This document shows, in pieces, positions 45,369 through 53,230 of a stretch of DNA of 64,000 nt (its first letter is position 1; each line of letters opens with the position of its first letter). Below the pieces are notes generated by a model. That model worked only from the letters and a program-made list of their open reading frames with translations, had not been told where the DNA came from and did no database searches. Both the position numbers and the translations under genes were made by a program. Origin of the DNA: a virus; IMG/VR virus record IMGVR_UViG_3300027782_000040; one strand, 5' to 3'.

Positions 45369-46238
45369 ATGAATTTAAAAGACATCTCATTAGAGATAAA
45401 CGATTTATTAGAAAAGAGAAGACAAGAATTAGAATTAACATTCATAGAAGAAGAACACATTTACTATATGAAAGATGTTGATGGTGAAATTAAAAAGAAC
45501 TTTCCATCCGTATCTAAAGTAGTTAAGAAATTTCACAAACCATTTGATGCTGATGGTATGGCACTTAAAATGGCAAAAGGAGACCCTGAAGGACAATCAC
45601 AATTACTTGCCGAATGGAAAGAGGCTGGCGACTTATCAACCAATATGGGAAGTAGAGTTCACTTTGAATTGGAGAAAGATTTAATTGGTCGTTTTGGTAA
45701 TTACAAAGAAGTTAGACAACCGATATTTGAGATTAATGAAGAACAACAACGCAAAAGTGATGCAATGATTAAAGCGGGAAAAGATTTTCTTGATTTAATG
45801 TTAGAACGAGGAGGGGTATTATTAGATACAGAAATTGTATTAGGTGATCCCAAAGAGCAGTATACGGGGCAACCTGATAAGTGTTGGTTAATGCAAAATA
45901 AAACAAAAGACGATTTTGGATTTGTAATAACTGATTGGAAGAGTAATAAGCCAAAGAACTTTGAGGTACATCACTATACTGGTAGATTGTATCCACCATT
46001 TAATAATTTTCATGATAATGCCTTAGGCCATTATTATTTACAATTACCATTATATGGTAGATTGTTACGTAAGATGCTAGAAGGGACAAAATATTCCGAT
46101 ACTAAATTATTAGGTGGAGTTATAGTTCTTTTAAAAGAAGACGGAACATTTACCGAATATAAAGTTCCACCACAAATAACAAATGCAATCCTTACAATGG
46201 ATTTATCAAAATATATTTCAAGATGGTCAAAAAAATAA
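45369..46238 (+). CDS. PD-(D/E)XK exonuclease (RecB-family)
   Basis: GSRVH, TE, GQPDK, ITDWKS, YYLQLPLY. Confidence 0.82.
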   Translation: MNLKDISLEINDLLEKRRQELELTFIEEEHIYYMKDVDGEIKKNFPSVSKVVKKFHKPFDADGMALKMAKGDPEGQSQLLAEWKEAGDLSTNMGSRVHFELEKDLIGRFGNYKEVRQPIFEINEEQQRKSDAMIKAGKDFLDLMLERGGVLLDTEIVLGDPKEQYTGQPDKCWLMQNKTKDDFGFVITDWKSNKPKNFEVHHYTGRLYPPFNNFHDNALGHYYLQLPLYGRLLRKMLEGTKYSDTKLLGGVIVLLKEDGTFTEYKVPPQITNAILTMDLSKYISRWSKK

Positions 46239-46903
46239 TACACATTGCCGACTTACATATTCGTACAATTCAAATGCATGATTTGTATAGAGAACAATTT
46301 GAAACATTAATTGATGAGATACGAGAACATAATATTGTGTGGCATCAAGAAGGTATTGAATATGAAGAAATTCGTATCGTTGTTGCAGGGGACCTGGCGC
46401 ATCAGAAAATAAATATTTCTAATGAACAGTTATTATTAACAAGTTGGTTTTTAAAAGAATTATCGAAATATGGTAAAGTTGTTATCATTCCCGGCAATCA
46501 CGATTTCTTAGAAAATAATACACAAAGAATGGATAGTATAACACCTGTGGTTCAATTATTAGACGACCCAACTATTCAATATTACAAAGATAGTGGTGAA
46601 TATATGGATGATAATATTCAATGGATTGTTTATTCATTATATCAACATAACGCACGACCTGAGTTTACTAAAGACGAATCTAAATTAACGATAGGATTAT
46701 TCCACGGACCTATTCAAGGATTTTCAACTGATTTAGGTTTTACATTTGACGACGCATATGATAAAAGTAATTTTTATGGTTGTGATATTGTCCTATGTGG
46801 AGATATACATAAAAGAGCAATTGTAAATTTGGAGACGGAAATTGAAGTTGATGAAAAAGATGTTGAAAATTATTTAAAAAATGGTTGGGAAAAAGTGATT
46901 TAG
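46223..46903 (+). CDS. sbcD: Mre11/SbcD nuclease, N-terminal fragment
   Basis: HIADLH, AGDLAH, PGNHD, FHGP, GDIHKR; then a non-canonical tail and a stop. Confidence 0.88.
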   Translation: MVKKIIHIADLHIRTIQMHDLYREQFETLIDEIREHNIVWHQEGIEYEEIRIVVAGDLAHQKINISNEQLLLTSWFLKELSKYGKVVIIPGNHDFLENNTQRMDSITPVVQLLDDPTIQYYKDSGEYMDDNIQWIVYSLYQHNARPEFTKDESKLTIGLFHGPIQGFSTDLGFTFDDAYDKSNFYGCDIVLCGDIHKRAIVNLETEIEVDEKDVENYLKNGWEKVI

Positions 46904-46907
46904 TCTT

Positions 46908-46937
46908 TTTTGGTGATATTTATATATATCACTAAAA
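46908..46937 (+). promoter_or_regulatory. 12-bp hairpin overlapping the late motif upstream of the endonuclease
   Basis: ttttggtgatat / atatcactaaaa with one G-U pair; contains TATTTATA at 46917. Confidence 0.7.
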
Positions 46938-46947
46938 TATTATAAAT

Positions 46948-47802
46948 ATGGAAAAAAATTGTGAAAGATGTGGAAATAAATTTAATGGAAAAAAAAATCA
47001 AAAATTTTGTTCTAAAAAATGTATTCACGTAAAAATTGAACAAATAGTAAAGGTGTGTGAATTAGATGAATGTGATAATACATTTTTAATTTATCCAAAT
47101 GCTAAAATACCAAAAAGATTATGTTCAAGAAAATGTCAAGTTAAATGGCAAAAAATAAATATGGTGGGTGAAAGTAATCCAAATTATGGAAATAGGAAAC
47201 CTGGTATGTTTAAACATACCGAAGAAACTAAAAAAATATTAAAAGAAAAAATTAAAGAAAGTTGGAAAAAAGAAAGTAGAATAAAAAAACATTTAGATTT
47301 TTTTGAAAGACATAGACTTGAAGATGGATCAATGGATTGGCATACAAATGAATTTAGGGAAAAAATTAGTAAATCAAATATAAAAAGGTTAGAAAATAAT
47401 GAAACATCTTTTGCGTATAAAAATTGCACAAAAGGTTTTTTATTAAATACAAAAACAAATAATGAGGAGTTCTATCATTCGTCTTGGGAAATGAATAAGA
47501 TGATAGAATTAAATGAAAATAAAGATGTATTTTTTTGGACGAAAAAACATGGAATACAAATAAAATATAATCATAAAAATTTAAATAAAATTTATTTACC
47601 CGATTTTTATGTTGAATATATTAACGGAGTTAAAAAAATAGAAGAAATAAAAGGATATGTCGAAGATGAAGAGCAATTAAAGTTAAAAATAATTGCAGTT
47701 AAAGAATATTGTAAAATCAATAATATACAATTTGTTATTGATTATGTTGAAAATAAAGAAAAATATAAACATTTAATAGAATGGGAAAAAAAATTAAATT
47801 AG
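46948..47802 (+). mobile_element. Free-standing homing endonuclease (Zn ribbons + NUMOD3 + TnsA-like PD-(D/E)XK domain) inserted in sbcD
   Basis: CERC...FCSKKC, C...C...LCSRKC, NPNYG...KHTEETKK, YHSSWE...YLPDF...EEIKG. Confidence 0.82.
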
Positions 47803-48011
47803 TAAAAAAAATACCAATAATACAAATTGGTAGCCTCATTCAACAAAACTTTGGTGAGACAGTTAAACATCATGGGTATGGTATTTATGATGTGGAAACA
47901 AATGAATATACATTTCATGATTTGGATAACGAACAGCCGTTTCTTCATTTCTCAATAAACGATATAAAAGACATTGAAGATGGAAAAGAAACACACGTTA
48001 ATCTTGGATAA
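47781..48011 (+). CDS. sbcD: Mre11/SbcD nuclease, second fragment
   Basis: IIQIGSLIQQNFGE...HGYGIYD is the segment that follows GDIH in intact SbcD/Mre11. Confidence 0.85.
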   Translation: MGKKIKLVKKIPIIQIGSLIQQNFGETVKHHGYGIYDVETNEYTFHDLDNEQPFLHFSINDIKDIEDGKETHVNLG

Positions 48012-48519
48012 GGAGTTCACTCAATTTTGTGAATTAAATAATATAACAGATATTGATAAACAAGCTCAAGAAACCTTTAATAGAGGATTTTCTTTATTAA
48101 AATACGGTGAGATACCAAATGGTAATAAAATTAGAGAAATCGTTGAAGTACCCAAAGAGACAATCAAAGAAGTTATTGTTGAAAAGATAGTTGAACGTAT
48201 TGTTGAGGTTCCCGTTGAAGTCATTAGGGAAGTAATTAAAGAAATAACAATAGAGGTACCTGTGGAGGTCATTAAAGAGGTCATCGTTGAAAAGAAAGGT
48301 AAGAGTAAAACCGTAACTAAAGAGGTGATTAAAGAGGTTCCGGTTGAGAAAATTGTGGAAGTTGTTAGGGAGGTGCTTAACAATGATGAGATAGATAGAT
48401 TAATGAAAGAGAATGAAAAACTTAAGACAGATTTAGATAACATTACAAATTCACTATCCAAGTTAGGGAAGGGTAGATTAATGAAGAATAGTAATATGAA
48501 TTCATTATACGACGAATAA
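47980..48519 (+). CDS. Protein with EKIVEVPVEVIKE (alveolin/IMCp-like) repeats and a coiled coil
   Basis: Alternating E/K-V/I repeats with VPV units over about 80 aa. Confidence 0.75.
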   Translation: MEKKHTLILDKEFTQFCELNNITDIDKQAQETFNRGFSLLKYGEIPNGNKIREIVEVPKETIKEVIVEKIVERIVEVPVEVIREVIKEITIEVPVEVIKEVIVEKKGKSKTVTKEVIKEVPVEKIVEVVREVLNNDEIDRLMKENEKLKTDLDNITNSLSKLGKGRLMKNSNMNSLYDE

Positions 48520-48578
48520 TTTTCGGCAACTTACTTTTTTTTACGGAATCTTTTCTCTATATTTTAAATAATAAATTA

Positions 48579-48884
48579 ATGATTATGATGAATTTTATTA
48601 TGTGGTTGTTCATTTCCTATGGGATATCAAACATTATGGTTTTTGGTAGTATATTCAACACACCAAGAGAATGGATTACAAGAAAATCAGAATGGTTTGG
48701 AAAACTGGTGAATTGTATGATGTGCCTACCCTTTTATGTAGGCATTGGTATGTCCCTTGTTTTTGGGGGATTAACAAATAAATATTTTCCATGTCCTTGG
48801 TATATGTGTTTATTCTTTGATGCTGTTTTAACCAGTGGTTTAGTCTATTCATTTAATGTCTTGGTTGAGAAATTAGAAAAATAG
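48579..48884 (+). CDS. Membrane protein, DUF1360-like
   Basis: Three hydrophobic segments; SIF..PR and LVNCMMCLPFYVG. Confidence 0.7.
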   Translation: MIMMNFIMWLFISYGISNIMVFGSIFNTPREWITRKSEWFGKLVNCMMCLPFYVGIGMSLVFGGLTNKYFPCPWYMCLFFDAVLTSGLVYSFNVLVEKLEK

Positions 48885-48893
48885 AATTAAGTA

Positions 48894-49583
48894 ATGAATA
48901 GTAATTTACCAATATTCCATCCATTTAATTTATTAAAAAGAATGAACAATTTTTTTAATGAAGTTGTTAATCCACTTTCACCTGAATTTATTGTTGGAGA
49001 TTTTAAAGACGGAAGAAAAGAATCAGAAAAACAAGAAAATCCAATACGTGTGTTTCTAATGGATTTAAATTCAGAGGCAAGTAAGTATGGATTTAAATTT
49101 AAAAATAGATTAGATGAAAATAATGAAAGAAGTACCGAAGATATTATCATTGAAGATTTATTATCGATTGAACATACGGAGCATTTAGGTAATATTAAAT
49201 CACATATGTCCAAAAATGCAAGTAATATTGGTAAAGATGGAATAATTGGTTATGCATTAACGGGAGACGACAAATCTTATAAAACCGCACAAATAACTGA
49301 ATTGTTTCTCAACAAAGTAAAAAATAATGATAATAAAATAAATTATGGGTTTTATTATTATATATCTTATAAAAAAGATAAAAAAACATTTTTAGTACAC
49401 GAATTATCATATATGTCACAAGATGATATTATAATTAACCCAACAAATTTTTTACAATCTAAAATGGAATATGAATCAGTTTATAGAACAAGTGAAGAAA
49501 GGTTTTATTTTTTGTGGGAAAATTATAAAATGTATGTTAGAAAAAATGTAATTAAATTTGACGGTATGGACCCATACCTATAA
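48894..49583 (+). CDS. Putative Type II restriction endonuclease
   Basis: Immediately upstream of an N6-MTase; RSTEDIII...GNIKS may be a D...(N)xK PD-(D/E)XK variant. Mostly inferred from context. Confidence 0.45.
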   Translation: MNSNLPIFHPFNLLKRMNNFFNEVVNPLSPEFIVGDFKDGRKESEKQENPIRVFLMDLNSEASKYGFKFKNRLDENNERSTEDIIIEDLLSIEHTEHLGNIKSHMSKNASNIGKDGIIGYALTGDDKSYKTAQITELFLNKVKNNDNKINYGFYYYISYKKDKKTFLVHELSYMSQDDIIINPTNFLQSKMEYESVYRTSEERFYFLWENYKMYVRKNVIKFDGMDPYL

Positions 49584-49589
49584 TATATC

Positions 49590-50897
49590 ATGAGTGAAAA
49601 AATATTGACGGAAGAAGAAATAAACAAATTAAATAAAGATAAATACGGACAGTTCTTTTCAAAGAATCCTGTAATAAGGAACGTAATACAATCTCTCATC
49701 TCAAACAAAGGTACAATTATGGAACCTTCAGTTGGGGAAGGAGATTTAATTTTTGGGTTAGAGAGTAAAGAACCTGTCTTAATAGACTTTAAACCTAAGG
49801 TTACGGAAATCAATAGTATTCCCGTAATTGAAATGGACTTCTTTAGTTATCCAGTAGAAAATAAATTTAACACAATTATTGGTAACCCACCATTTGTAAA
49901 ATATAAATTTCTTGACGATAGTGTTGTAGAAAATATAAAACACTATGAATTTAATAAAAAGACTAATCCAAATGGATATAACAAGAAATCAAATCTATAT
50001 TATTTTTTTATTCATAAGTGTATTGAACAATTAGAAGATAATGGAGAATTAATTTTTATTACACCAAAAGAGTTCATGTATAATGTGGGAGCGATTACTT
50101 TGAGAAATTTCATGTTTCAAAATGGTACAATAACTCATTTTATAGATTGCGGAGAGAAAAAGTTATTTACTGATGCATCTGTACCATCTCTTTGTATCTT
50201 TAGATTTCAAAAGGGTACATTCTTAAGAGAAACTAAATTTTGGGAAACAATCGAATCATATGTAAATAAGGATGAATGTGTTATTAAACCAATGAAGATA
50301 TCAAATGACCAATTTTGTTTTTGTGATGAAGACGATACTAACACACTATCAGATTTTTTTGATGTTAAAGTAGGTGTAGTATCAGGATTAGATGGTTTCT
50401 ATTCAACTGATAGGGTAGAAGATGGTGTTTATATACATAAATTTAGAACTAATAGTGGTTATCAGAATTATTATTTTTTTGACCAAATAAATGATATTAA
50501 TTTAGTACCGGAGGATATTAGATTGTTATTCTTATTAAATAAGGATAAATTAAAAAATAGAAAAATTAAAAAATATACGGATAATGATTGGTGGAAATAT
50601 GGTGCAGTTAGAAACTTAGAAAATATGTTAAGTGACAAAAATAGAATCTATGTCGCACCAAAAACAAGATTAGCAAATCCATTTTTTATGGGACAATCAA
50701 ATGAACTTTACTCTGGTTCGTTGTTGGGTATATTTCCTAAAAAAGATAATATTGATTTGGAAAAATCTATTATGTTTTTTAATTCTGATATTTTTAAAAA
50801 CAGATTAAAACAATTTTTTATAATGATTGAAGATAAATTTAATTTTACACCTTCAGTACTTGGAAAAATACCACTAAATTTAAACGAAATAATTTAA
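49590..50897 (+). CDS. Gamma-class DNA adenine methyltransferase with a TaqI-like C-terminal target recognition domain
   Basis: GQFFS, MEPSVGEGD (motif I), IGNPPF (motif IV), NLYYFFI, GELIFITP. Confidence 0.9.
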   Translation: MSEKILTEEEINKLNKDKYGQFFSKNPVIRNVIQSLISNKGTIMEPSVGEGDLIFGLESKEPVLIDFKPKVTEINSIPVIEMDFFSYPVENKFNTIIGNPPFVKYKFLDDSVVENIKHYEFNKKTNPNGYNKKSNLYYFFIHKCIEQLEDNGELIFITPKEFMYNVGAITLRNFMFQNGTITHFIDCGEKKLFTDASVPSLCIFRFQKGTFLRETKFWETIESYVNKDECVIKPMKISNDQFCFCDEDDTNTLSDFFDVKVGVVSGLDGFYSTDRVEDGVYIHKFRTNSGYQNYYFFDQINDINLVPEDIRLLFLLNKDKLKNRKIKKYTDNDWWKYGAVRNLENMLSDKNRIYVAPKTRLANPFFMGQSNELYSGSLLGIFPKKDNIDLEKSIMFFNSDIFKNRLKQFFIMIEDKFNFTPSVLGKIPLNLNEII

Positions 50898-53230
50898 TGA
50901 ATCCGTTTATAAAAGTAACGTGGGAAGATGTCCCCGAAAATTTCACCCCTGAAAAAATCAGAAGAGTAAAATCTTATTTTGAGAAAAAATATAATGCTAA
51001 GACAGTTCAAGTAATCACTAAAACATTAACGAGTGTTAATCAAACACGATTAGAATCTTTGGAAGCGTCAGATAATATCTTAGACCACCAATATCAAAAG
51101 AAACTAATGAAAGATTTCATTAAGGATAATGAAATTGATATTAAATGGGAATTGGTTGATAGGTTAGATAATAAAGTTAATATTCAAATAGATAAATTAA
51201 ATGAAAACAAAGTTAGATATAATAAATGGTATATTAGGAAAGTGGAGTTTTCTAATTTTTTATCATTCGGAGATAATAACGTTATTGATTTTACTGGGTT
51301 GGACGGTATTACGGTAATTGAATCCACACCAAAGAACTTCGGCGGTAAATCTACATCTTCAGTAGATCTTTTAATGTTCTTATTTTTTAATACAACAACA
51401 AAGACAAAAACTAACGGTGAAATCTTTAATAGATTTACCGATAAGAATGATGTAAGTGTTCGTGGTGAAATCACTATTGATGGTGATGACTACGTCATTG
51501 AAAGAAAGACATCTCGTAAGATGGGTAAGTCTGGTGAGTACACCGTTAAAAATGAATTAGAGTTTTATAAAAAAACTGAAGATGGAGAAATCGTAAATTT
51601 ATCGGGTGAACAAAGAAGAGAAACGGAAGCATTTATATCTTCAGCAATTGGAACAGAAGAAGATTTCTTATCAACCATATTAACAACTGGTTATAATTTA
51701 GAAGAACTGATTGAATCCAAACCAACCGCTCGTGGACAAATCTTAACAAAGTTCATGGGGTTGGAAAACTTAAAAATTAAAGAAGAACTTGCAAAAGAAA
51801 TTTATAACGATTGGGGTAAGAAATTGGTATCCAACACATATAACAAAGTTAGTTTAGAATCTGATAATGAAACATACAAAGAAAGTATTACCAATTCAGA
51901 AAATGAGATTGTAAAATTAACAAAAGAATTAGGTAAGTTTGAAAAGGATTTAGACAAGTTAGAAAAGAAAAGAGATGATGTATTTTTAAAAAGAAATAAT
52001 GATGTTGATAAAGAATTACTGAATACAAATCCAACTTTATTACAAAGAGAAGTTACTTTTTTATTAACTCAAAAAAATGTAAGTCAAACAAACGCCGACG
52101 GAGTTAGTGTTGTTGAACCATCACAATTCTATGATGAAGATCAACACAAAGAGTTAAAAGGTGAAATGGCAAATCTTCAAGGAATTGATGTTGTATCCAA
52201 ATATGAAAAAACTCAAAGAGAAAAATTAATTAAACAATTTGAAGAAGGAACAGTTTGTCCTACTTGTAATCGTGCGTTAGATGAAGTAGATCATACGGAC
52301 GAGATTGAAAAGATTAAAAAAGAAATTGAAGATATCATTAAGGAGATGGAATTAAATCAAAATCAATTTGATTTATTAAAAGAACAATCTGAAGGATTTG
52401 ATAAATTAAAAACCGAATTTGAAGCTTACGAAAGAAACAAACTTCGTAAGGAAAGATATCAATTAGAGATTGAACAAAAACAATTGGAGATTGATAGTAA
52501 ACAAAAAAGATTAGATAATTACGAAAGTAATAAAAAGAAACTTGAGGATAACCAAAAGATTGATGCTGAAGTGATTGCACTTAAAACTAAAATAGAAACA
52601 GCAAACGGAGATATTAGACAGACAAACACTAACATTGAAAAACATACCAATAACATTTCAAATATGAATGGTAAGGTTGGTATCAATGAGGAGTTAATTA
52701 AAAAGATTACGGCGGAGGAAGAATTAGCTGCCGTGTTTAAAATATACTTAACCGTTTATGGTAAAAACGGAATATCTAAAATCATTCTTAAAAATATGAT
52801 TCCATTAATCAATCAGGAATTGTATCGTTTGTTAGTTGATAGTTGTCATTTCATTTTAGAGATGAATATAAACGATAAGAACGAGGTTGAATTTATTATG
52901 ATAGATACTGAAACTCGTATTGTTAAGCCTCTTAATGCGGGGTCTGGTTATGAAAGAACCATATCCTCATTGGCACTTCGTAGTGTATTAACTAAAATAT
53001 CATCATTACCTAAACCTAACATCGTAGTTATGGACGAGGTGTTTGGTAAGATTGCTGACGAGAACTTGGAAATGGTCGGTGAGTTCTTTAAAAAGATTAA
53101 AAATTATTTTGACCATATACTTGTCATATCACACAATTCTTTAATACGTAATTGGTCTGATAATATCGTTATGATTAAGAAAGAAGAAAATGTTTCATCC
53201 ATAGATTTTATCACAACAAAAATTTCTTAG
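50897..53230 (+). CDS. sbcC: Rad50/SbcC SMC-like ATPase with an N-terminal extension of about 108 aa
   Basis: FSNFLSFG, NFGGKST, CPTC zinc hook, GSGYE signature, VMDEVFG, ISH. Confidence 0.92.
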   Translation: MNPFIKVTWEDVPENFTPEKIRRVKSYFEKKYNAKTVQVITKTLTSVNQTRLESLEASDNILDHQYQKKLMKDFIKDNEIDIKWELVDRLDNKVNIQIDKLNENKVRYNKWYIRKVEFSNFLSFGDNNVIDFTGLDGITVIESTPKNFGGKSTSSVDLLMFLFFNTTTKTKTNGEIFNRFTDKNDVSVRGEITIDGDDYVIERKTSRKMGKSGEYTVKNELEFYKKTEDGEIVNLSGEQRRETEAFISSAIGTEEDFLSTILTTGYNLEELIESKPTARGQILTKFMGLENLKIKEELAKEIYNDWGKKLVSNTYNKVSLESDNETYKESITNSENEIVKLTKELGKFEKDLDKLEKKRDDVFLKRNNDVDKELLNTNPTLLQREVTFLLTQKNVSQTNADGVSVVEPSQFYDEDQHKELKGEMANLQGIDVVSKYEKTQREKLIKQFEEGTVCPTCNRALDEVDHTDEIEKIKKEIEDIIKEMELNQNQFDLLKEQSEGFDKLKTEFEAYERNKLRKERYQLEIEQKQLEIDSKQKRLDNYESNKKKLEDNQKIDAEVIALKTKIETANGDIRQTNTNIEKHTNNISNMNGKVGINEELIKKITAEEELAAVFKIYLTVYGKNGISKIILKNMIPLINQELYRLLVDSCHFILEMNINDKNEVEFIMIDTETRIVKPLNAGSGYERTISSLALRSVLTKISSLPKPNIVVMDEVFGKIADENLEMVGEFFKKIKNYFDHILVISHNSLIRNWSDNIVMIKKEENVSSIDFITTKIS

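Follow-up and report, generated by a model that had tools for sequence, protein, structure and literature searches.

How can a phage nuclease gene tolerate an endonuclease gene placed inside its coding sequence, when the two resulting pieces seem to be rejoined neither as RNA nor as protein? This question is raised by a 64,000-nucleotide (nt) stretch of viral DNA (IMG/VR record IMGVR_UViG_3300027782_000040; the whole stretch is hereafter called the window) from a freshwater jumbo phage, in which three same-strand open reading frames (ORFs) fill positions 46223-48011: two pieces of an SbcD/Mre11-like gene and, between them, a gene for a free-standing homing endonuclease. The initial annotation, made from the sequence alone, had proposed that sbcD is fractured here and resumes in a separate 76-amino-acid (aa) ORF, and both the ORFs and the PHROG 100 profile agree with it. 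We consider it probable that a mobile cassette was inserted at the tip of a beta-hairpin, that the two polypeptides assemble non-covalently, and that an acidic tail on the first and a basic leader on the second stabilise or position this assembly. The locus is laid out as follows.

46223-46903, + strand: fragment 1 ORF, 226 aa.
46223-46831, + strand: native part of fragment 1 (residues 1-203), the SbcD/Mre11-type metallophosphoesterase core with all five nuclease motifs; its last element is the first strand of a beta-hairpin.
46832-46903, + strand: acidic C-terminal tail E204-I226 (46832-46900), predicted strand-helix-strand, and stop codon.
46904-46947, + strand: cassette control region, a hairpin with a 12-bp stem (46908-46937) followed by TATAAATA, which abuts the endonuclease start codon.
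46948-47802, + strand: free-standing homing endonuclease gene, 284 aa; Cys-rich ribbons and a NUMOD3-like stretch in the N-terminal half, a TnsA-like PD-(D/E)xK domain at the C-terminus.
47781-48011, + strand: fragment 2 ORF, 76 aa.
47781-47810, + strand: basic N-terminal leader M1-K10 of fragment 2, its start codon lying inside the 3' end of the endonuclease gene.
47811-48011, + strand: native part of fragment 2, with the second hairpin strand, the GS-x-IQQ-x-FGE motif, and further beta-strands of the nuclease core and cap.

The start of fragment 2 overlaps the 3' end of the endonuclease gene by 22 nt, and the DNA between the pieces that lies outside ORFs amounts to 44 nt only. The two outer ORFs are consecutive parts of one family, because fragment 1 matches positions 27-220 of PHROG 100 (“SbcD-like,” E 1.5e-15) and fragment 2 matches positions 227-281 (E 2.4e-4). 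In addition, fragment 1 matches Pfam Metallophos (E 4e-12), and its family profile, searched against the PDB, matches SbcD (7dog, E 2.9e-12) as well as Mre11 (1ii7, 3qg5) and E. coli SbcD (4lty, 6s6v). Phosphoesterase motifs I-V (D-x-H, G-D, G-N-H-D, H, and G-D/H-x-H) all lie within fragment 1; 27 split homologs show no variation at D10, G56-D57, G91-N92-H93-D94, H161, or D194-I195-H196, and 90% or more of them retain H12 and G193.

The position of the break can be read from uninterrupted relatives. In all 80 of the closest IMG/VR relatives (70-93% identical to fragment 1 and with the same gene neighbours) the gene is a single continuous ORF, 264-274 aa long in the 78 complete ones, the other two ending at a contig edge; fragment 2 is contiguous with fragment 1 also in distant fused proteins. 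The nearest record (G001), a 27%-complete fragment, holds one uninterrupted copy, and a match to the endonuclease was not found there; a second sbcD copy elsewhere in the genome of the phage studied here is possible. A codon-level alignment indicates that the native chain of the window allele runs five residues beyond GDIHKR, to L203, and that uninterrupted alleles continue at this point with a four-residue turn, PNGG, and then with the second strand, which leads into the GS-x-IQQ-x-FGE motif. The window has, in place of PNGG, 23 codons and a stop, the 44-nt spacer, the endonuclease gene, and 10 codons. Because the native strand reaches L203 and the PNGG turn is replaced, the break falls in the turn of a beta-hairpin. 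It had first been placed right after GDIHKR, in a loop between two strands; the loop stands, and the exact point moves five residues downstream, to the hairpin turn. The coordinates given for the acidic tail proved exact, and the tail (23 aa) and the leader (10 aa) both lack a counterpart in the 80 uninterrupted relatives, so that both are additions replacing the turn.

Conservation suggests that these additions are under selection and are not junk. Every endonuclease-bearing allele recovered has both tail and leader, down to about 35% identity of the host gene, and a protein search of the whole library found the same tail pattern at the end of 17 or more short, diverged fragment-1 proteins (35-67% identical). 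Across the 27 split fragment-1 proteins, whose mean column identity is 43%, G221-W222 of the tail is as invariant as the catalytic residues, and the stop codon always follows this GW within 2-8 residues. The leader is present in 63 of the 100 small proteins returned; in 41 fragment-2 homologs its M1 is invariant, and K4, K6, and P12 (the last just past the leader) are kept in at least 90%. The charge complementarity noticed at the outset also holds across split relatives, the last 23 residues of the 27 fragment-1 proteins having a mean net charge of −4.4 and the first 10 of the 41 fragment-2 proteins one of +4.8. In all five tail pairs that differ, the rate of nonsynonymous differences (pN) is below that of synonymous ones (pS), which is suggestive only, as tails and leaders offer very few sites.

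The tails did not originate in the split gene but belong to a mobile cassette, with which they were imported. The relevant tract is the following.

46300-47830, no strand assigned: recently transferred tract, comprising the 3' part of fragment 1, the tail, the endonuclease gene, and the leader.

Between the window and a related locus (L101), nucleotide identity is 97-100% from about 46300 to 47800-47830 (about 1.5 kb), against 66-86%, mostly 70-80%, in the flanking genes. Compared with endonuclease-free relatives, the flanks of the window are 95-100% identical, while identity falls to 61-70% at 46740-46830 and to 80-87% at 47820-47880; on this sequence evidence, the drop beside the break is a signature of co-conversion. 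We placed the alleles on a tree built from the N-terminal domain without the tail columns (164 rows: 32 split, 127 plain, and 5 insertion-bearing). Here the window allele nests among uninterrupted alleles, and 21 changes are required to account for the split state; strongly supported branches force at least 11 of these. In one independent metagenome run, an endonuclease-free joint (depth 59) occurs beside an invaded contig (depth 11). Contigs from two independent freshwater runs (X6 and X13) join 46905 to 47531, with a short side of 22 nt, and so lack 625 nt at the 5' end of the cassette, including the control region and the initial ~195 endonuclease codons. The tail and leader are kept, and the depth of this form exceeds that of the full one. 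This joint may represent a decayed endonuclease, and in another protein (P0219) an endonuclease remnant is fused to the leader. Invasion, polymorphism, and decay are therefore all visible, in the transferred tract, in the mixed alleles of one run, and in the decay forms including P0219.

In the metagenome scan and in IMG/VR (L097), all full-length homologs of the endonuclease, to identities as low as about 33%, were found at this same site, each flanked by a similar tail and leader. At L097 and L122 the invaded gene encodes a fused SbcD-SbcC protein. The cassette thus holds the same site in many diverged phages, in stand-alone and fused SbcD genes alike. Together with the identity profiles, this shows a cassette that evidently moves between phage genomes by homing or recombination, carrying flanking host sequence along. 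The search for further sets of tail, endonuclease, and leader ORFs, which the initial annotation had suggested, accordingly found them at the same site in diverged phages. The sole exception to the site is a partial nuclease-domain homolog upstream of an intact fused gene: the related nuclease domain is encoded between a primase gene and the intact fused SbcD-SbcC gene (L124:408-1352 and L125:2052-2996). Its intergenic location resembles that of mobE in most T-even phages and is a possible starting point for intragenic invasion.

The two fragments are predicted to associate. Prediction of the complex of fragments 1 and 2, run on alignments of our own, scored 0.87, against 0.00 for the best control; this mark is attained by 58 of 80 solved complexes and by 2 of 110 mismatched pairs. 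The runs share at least 93% of contacts, and the predicted local distance difference test (pLDDT) of the partner is at least 63. Co-folding, one of the checks proposed for this locus, places both additions in the predicted interface, with residues 204-211, 214, 217-218, and 221-225 of the tail on one side and residues 2-20 of fragment 2, leader residues 2-10 among them, on the other. Tail contacts in the model are at first continuous and then follow a periodicity of three to four residues, which fits a strand followed by a helix.

In the mechanism that we propose, the cassette would have entered the phage SbcD/Mre11-like gene beyond nuclease motif V, at the tip of the next beta-hairpin, bringing, in order, tail-coding DNA, a stop codon, a hairpin with a promoter-like element, the endonuclease gene, and a start codon with leader-coding DNA. 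The gene would then be expressed as two polypeptides that join non-covalently, without RNA or protein splicing, fragment 2 supplying core beta-strands to the nuclease fold. The acidic tail (strand-helix-strand) and the basic leader (strand) would extend the broken hairpin into a small sheet-plus-helix interface unit, and this unit would stabilise or correctly position the assembly, which may be what makes the insertion tolerable. The assembled two-piece protein qualifies, by its sequence features, as a predicted SbcD/Mre11 nuclease with a Rad50/SbcC partner encoded nearby.

There is a precedent for such tails in phage Aeh1, where mobE separates nrdA-a from nrdA-b: the split NrdA cannot do without its tails, which derive from mobE and carry opposite charges (Crona et al., 2011, PMC3045599). 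The same precedent is also among the points that weigh against the mechanism as we have drawn it, since the NrdA tails are not needed for heterodimer formation and act later, in the dimerisation of heterodimers (Crona et al., 2011, PMC3045599). The most confident contacts predicted for the split SbcD are those of native core strands, not of the tails (residues 3-8 of fragment 1 with 33-38 of fragment 2, and 189-192 with 12-14), so that the halves may bind without tails. The fragments being halves of one fold, the passing score may reflect likeness to solved SbcD/Mre11 structures, and the complex prediction does not isolate the tails' own contribution. The co-occurrence of tail and split is partly linkage, because the tails travel with the endonuclease, and the conservation of the leader may come in part from reading-frame overlap, because the leader overlaps the endonuclease ORF. 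For the suggestion that tail and leader form a mini-domain in trans, the outcome is divided: a tail strand-helix-strand and a leader strand do lie at the predicted interface, while a zipper role, in which the tails themselves re-zip the halves, is unproven, because the native interface is large and the NrdA tails are dispensable for heterodimer formation.

The strongest alternative, although we consider it unlikely, has the tails act at a higher assembly step, for example in SbcD dimerisation or in docking to the Rad50-like partner or to DNA, perhaps with a DNA-binding role that comes from a homing-endonuclease repeat, and not as a zipper. The behaviour of the NrdA tails in the dimer of heterodimers and the size of the native interface would both fit it, as would the resemblance of the tail motif to a C-terminal repeat of GIY-YIG homing endonucleases. 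By contrast, the model sets the tail against fragment 2 and the leader against fragment 1, and a contiguous version of the two segments, described below, forms one compact unit.

A resemblance to homing endonucleases had been pointed out in the initial annotation, where the mini-domain of tail and leader was likened to their V...YL..GW module, and the tail motif does recur at GIY-YIG C-termini. A degenerate DNA pattern for the tail helix hit eight IMG/VR loci, at least five of them at C-terminal repeats of GIY-YIG homing endonucleases, where about 0.1 hits would be expected by chance as estimated from the information content of the pattern. A hidden Markov model (HMM) of the tail matches GIY-YIG C-termini at E 4e-7 to 2e-3 among 12,602 ORFs, a result that is partly circular in that the loci were fetched with the motif. 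We take this likeness as a lead on the origin of the tail, homology not being demonstrated. As for the repeat itself, the GIY-YIG endonucleases at L084:9132-9782, L086:9969-10370, L087:11635-12468 (− strand), and L088:5842-6945 (− strand) carry one to three copies at their C-termini, each a strand and a helix ending in YL-x-x-GW-x-x-GR, close to the fragment-1 tail. The repeat in these four proteins is covered by no Pfam model.

A further alternative derives tail and leader from a single native insertion domain, already present in an ancestral uninterrupted SbcD; the endonuclease would have entered the loop of this domain, and co-conversion would have spread its two halves, with no adaptation to the split state. 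Uninterrupted homologs that carry both segments contiguously, which had been named in advance as a finding that would refute the fracture-specific reading, do exist: P0148, P0087, P0126, and P0197, and perhaps P0059, are long, uninterrupted proteins in which a tail-like and a leader-like segment are joined by a loop of 4-8 residues. In the AlphaFold model of P0148, the two segments fold as one unit between two native strands, with a strand at 193-199, a helix at 200-208, a strand at 212-218, a loop, and a strand at 225-232 (pLDDT 72-78). This model shows that the end of a tail and the start of a leader can adjoin within one predicted folded unit. However, the insertion-bearing uninterrupted forms are rare (5 of the 164 rows on the tree, beside 32 split and 127 plain) and polyphyletic, requiring four changes, at least three of them forced; and they adjoin split forms, P0126 and P0197 grouping with the split P0107 (support 99) and P0148 with the split P0158 and P0160, which fits a secondary in-frame fusion after endonuclease loss. 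P0148 has only one relative in IMG/VR, 29% identical. The existence of decay intermediates (P0219 and the 625-nt deletion joint described above) likewise speaks against an ancestral domain. Their rarity, their polyphyly, and their proximity to split forms on the tree therefore favour healed fractures. That the insertion-bearing homologs are fractures healed by in-frame loss of the endonuclease is unproven; from their placement it seems roughly twice as probable as an ancestral domain, and the latter, as an account of tail and leader in general, we judge unlikely.

Beyond this, the tail-leader pair might be a self-contained, portable heterodimerisation unit of one strand-helix-strand and one strand, an antidote that comes with this endonuclease lineage and perhaps derives from the repeated YL-x-x-GW DNA-binding motif of homing endonucleases. 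It would allow the cassette to reside in an essential gene of many phage lineages and, after endonuclease loss, would be left behind as a permanent insertion in the healed protein. We put this forward tentatively, as less likely than not; were it true, the traffic of selfish elements would be a source of new protein insertions.

Two other explanations fare much worse. It is very improbable that the extra residues are neutral debris of read-through and start-codon choice, in a gene that is either a decaying pseudogene or working regardless: read-through is expected after any insertion, and AT-rich DNA can yield short open stretches, but G221-W222 is invariant, the strand-helix pattern persists to identities as low as about 35%, the stop codon keeps its narrow distance from GW, the catalytic motifs are all intact, and 63 leader-bearing fragment-2 clusters have intact ORFs. 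Weaker still, to the point of being scarcely credible, is the idea that splicing restores continuity, be it by a group I intron in which the endonuclease ORF resides or by a split intein of very small size. Phage homing endonucleases do often reside within group I introns and inteins, and a split intein breaks the Rad50-like gene of a related phage (L095). However, only 44 nt lie outside ORFs; the protein-level conservation of tail and leader, the invariant start Met, and the conserved stop are unexpected in intron sequence; and the extra residues total 33, far below an intein fold (roughly 130 or more for split intein blocks). An Rfam scan of 46000-48600 with E up to 10 gave chance-level hits only and no Intron_gpI, although a core split by the 855-nt ORF could escape it. 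In the 27 fragment-1 and 41 fragment-2 homologs, the features of a split intein were not conserved, i.e., Cys/Ser at the tail start, His-Asn at the leader end, or Cys/Ser/Thr at the first native residue. The earlier statement that the locus has neither intein motifs nor room for an intron is supported, in that no intron or intein features were detectable. Translational bypass over about 900 nt was considered separately and is rejected in view of the conserved stop codon of fragment 1 and the invariant start codon of fragment 2.

Sequence and model together identify the endonuclease as a PD-(D/E)xK-type, TnsA-like homing endonuclease. We found 54 homologs; P218-D219, E233, and K235, which form a canonical PD...ExK signature, are invariant in 39 homologs. 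The match to Pfam Tn7_TnsA-like_N (PF08722) has an E of 1.1e-4 and a score of 23.2, below the cut-off of 26.5. The AlphaFold model has a pLDDT of 87.7, and the best Foldseek match of its C-terminal domain is TnsA (1f1z/1t0f, E about 1e-4, probability 1.0). The likeness to TnsA, the transposase endonuclease subunit of Tn7, lies in the fold of the C-terminal domain and in the PD and ExK residues; identity is about 16%, the N-terminal DNA-binding half, with Cys-rich ribbons and a weak NUMOD3-like stretch, differs, and the phage enzyme is free-standing, without transposon context. A profile search of PDB sequences with the endonuclease returned nothing meaningful. Vsr and I-Bth0305I were absent from the matches of that search and from the listed Foldseek hits, the motifs of the EDxHD family not having been compared directly. 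A query of IMG/VR with the single protein found no relative, while a metagenome scan with its alignment did return relatives.

The control region upstream of the endonuclease gene forms a hairpin with a predicted RNA folding energy of −14 kcal/mol (z −3.77). Most related endonuclease genes are preceded by the motif GGTGATATTTATA, usually within a hairpin, even where the encoded proteins share no more than about 33-60% identity (L102-L126). In the window, the GGTGATATTTATA region at 46908-46947 is a candidate promoter or translational control element borne by the cassette. An extra small ORF of 83-103 aa lies between the endonuclease gene and fragment 2 in two related loci (L115:3819-4067 and L117:3825-4133), so the cassette can carry passengers.

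How does this locus relate to known genes in pieces? Dassa et al. (2009, PMC2677866) described, from Lake Gatun, an SbcD-like gene split by a free-standing endonuclease gene with no intein. In that locus the first piece is longer by 25 residues at its C-terminus and the second by 9 at its N-terminus, residues that other SbcD proteins do not have; the end of its endonuclease gene overlaps the downstream ORF, and 5' hairpins with TATAAATA are present; the function or mobility of the extra residues in this single locus was not claimed (Dassa et al., 2009, PMC2677866). The window shares with it the two-ORF layout, the size of the additions (23 and 10 residues here), the overlap, the hairpin with TATAAATA, and the freshwater origin, and a related locus (L123), a GOS record, has the same layout. 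A difference is that the earlier endonuclease was called “Vsr-like,” whereas the one here is canonical PD...ExK with TnsA as its best match. The two cassettes are likely identical.

The same authors treated the split-intein fractured genes (gp41, DnaE, NrdA/J, and others), for which they proposed that the halves associate through electrostatics between anti-parallel strands (Dassa et al., 2009, PMC2677866). These genes share layout, control elements, and phage habitat with the locus studied here. Unlike them, this locus has 33 extra residues, no intein, and no splicing motifs, and its fragments would stay separate.

The split NrdA of Aeh1 is similar to the split SbcD in that an essential DNA-metabolism gene is interrupted by a free-standing endonuclease gene, without splicing, and bears insertion-borne tails of opposite charge. 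The host enzyme, the endonuclease family (HNH in Aeh1), and the tail sequences are all different, and the charge polarity is reversed, the C-terminal tail being basic and the N-terminal one acidic in Aeh1, whereas here the C-terminal tail is acidic and the N-terminal leader basic. The Aeh1 genes in pieces were reportedly also described by Friedrich and colleagues in 2007. The Aeh1 arrangement concerns one phage, while here a single conserved pair of tail and leader is found in many diverged phages and travels together with its endonuclease. Crona et al. (2011, PMC3045599) proposed such tails as a general antidote to fragmentation and predicted them elsewhere.

Novelty of principle can therefore not be claimed, as the same intein-less fracture of an SbcD-like gene (PMC2677866) and essential charged tails (PMC3045599) have both been published, and the locus is a further example of an arrangement described by Dassa et al. 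(2009) and Crona et al. (2011). What is new is that one tail-leader pair is so widespread and so well conserved, that it is linked to a TnsA-like endonuclease lineage, that recent transfer has left a signature, and that some alleles are probably healed. One endonuclease lineage carries the pair through numerous diverged phages, both freshwater and marine, with clear signs of recent transfer, of invaded beside uninvaded alleles, of endonuclease decay, and of probable healing. This makes the locus better suited than Aeh1 alone to the question of whether such tails are portable complementation tags of general occurrence. Split-protein engineering might also draw short tags from it, although it opens no new category.

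The candidate partner of the split nuclease is encoded further downstream.

50897-53230, + strand: Rad50/SbcC-like ATPase, 777 aa (PHROG 77 SbcC-like, E 9e-48).

In distant phages, SbcD and SbcC are fused in one protein of about 1050-1200 aa. A BLASTP comparison with the fused protein of LR756501 aligns residues 6-272 of the Rad50-like protein with residues 273-539, and C-terminus with C-terminus. The first ~110 residues of the Rad50-like protein (50897-51225) align with residues 273-385 of the fused SbcD-SbcC proteins, the region after the Mre11 part, so the module has, in this clade, another and older point of separation. The Rad50-like gene of a related phage has a break of its own, within the P-loop (L095:6196-8616): the upstream ORF ends with a Cys-initiated, N-intein-like segment after GGK, and the intein-like part of the next ORF ends in His-Asn followed by Thr, which makes it a split-intein fractured gene in the same repair module. 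Between the parts of the module, at 47974-48884, two conserved small genes (a 181-aa repeat-rich protein and a 101-aa membrane protein) are present in all 80 relatives. Directly before the Rad50-like gene, 48894-50897 holds a 229-aa ORF and an Eco57I-type N6 DNA methyltransferase gene (Pfam E 1.6e-19); because relatives carry different genes or none there, this region is a variable insertion hot spot.

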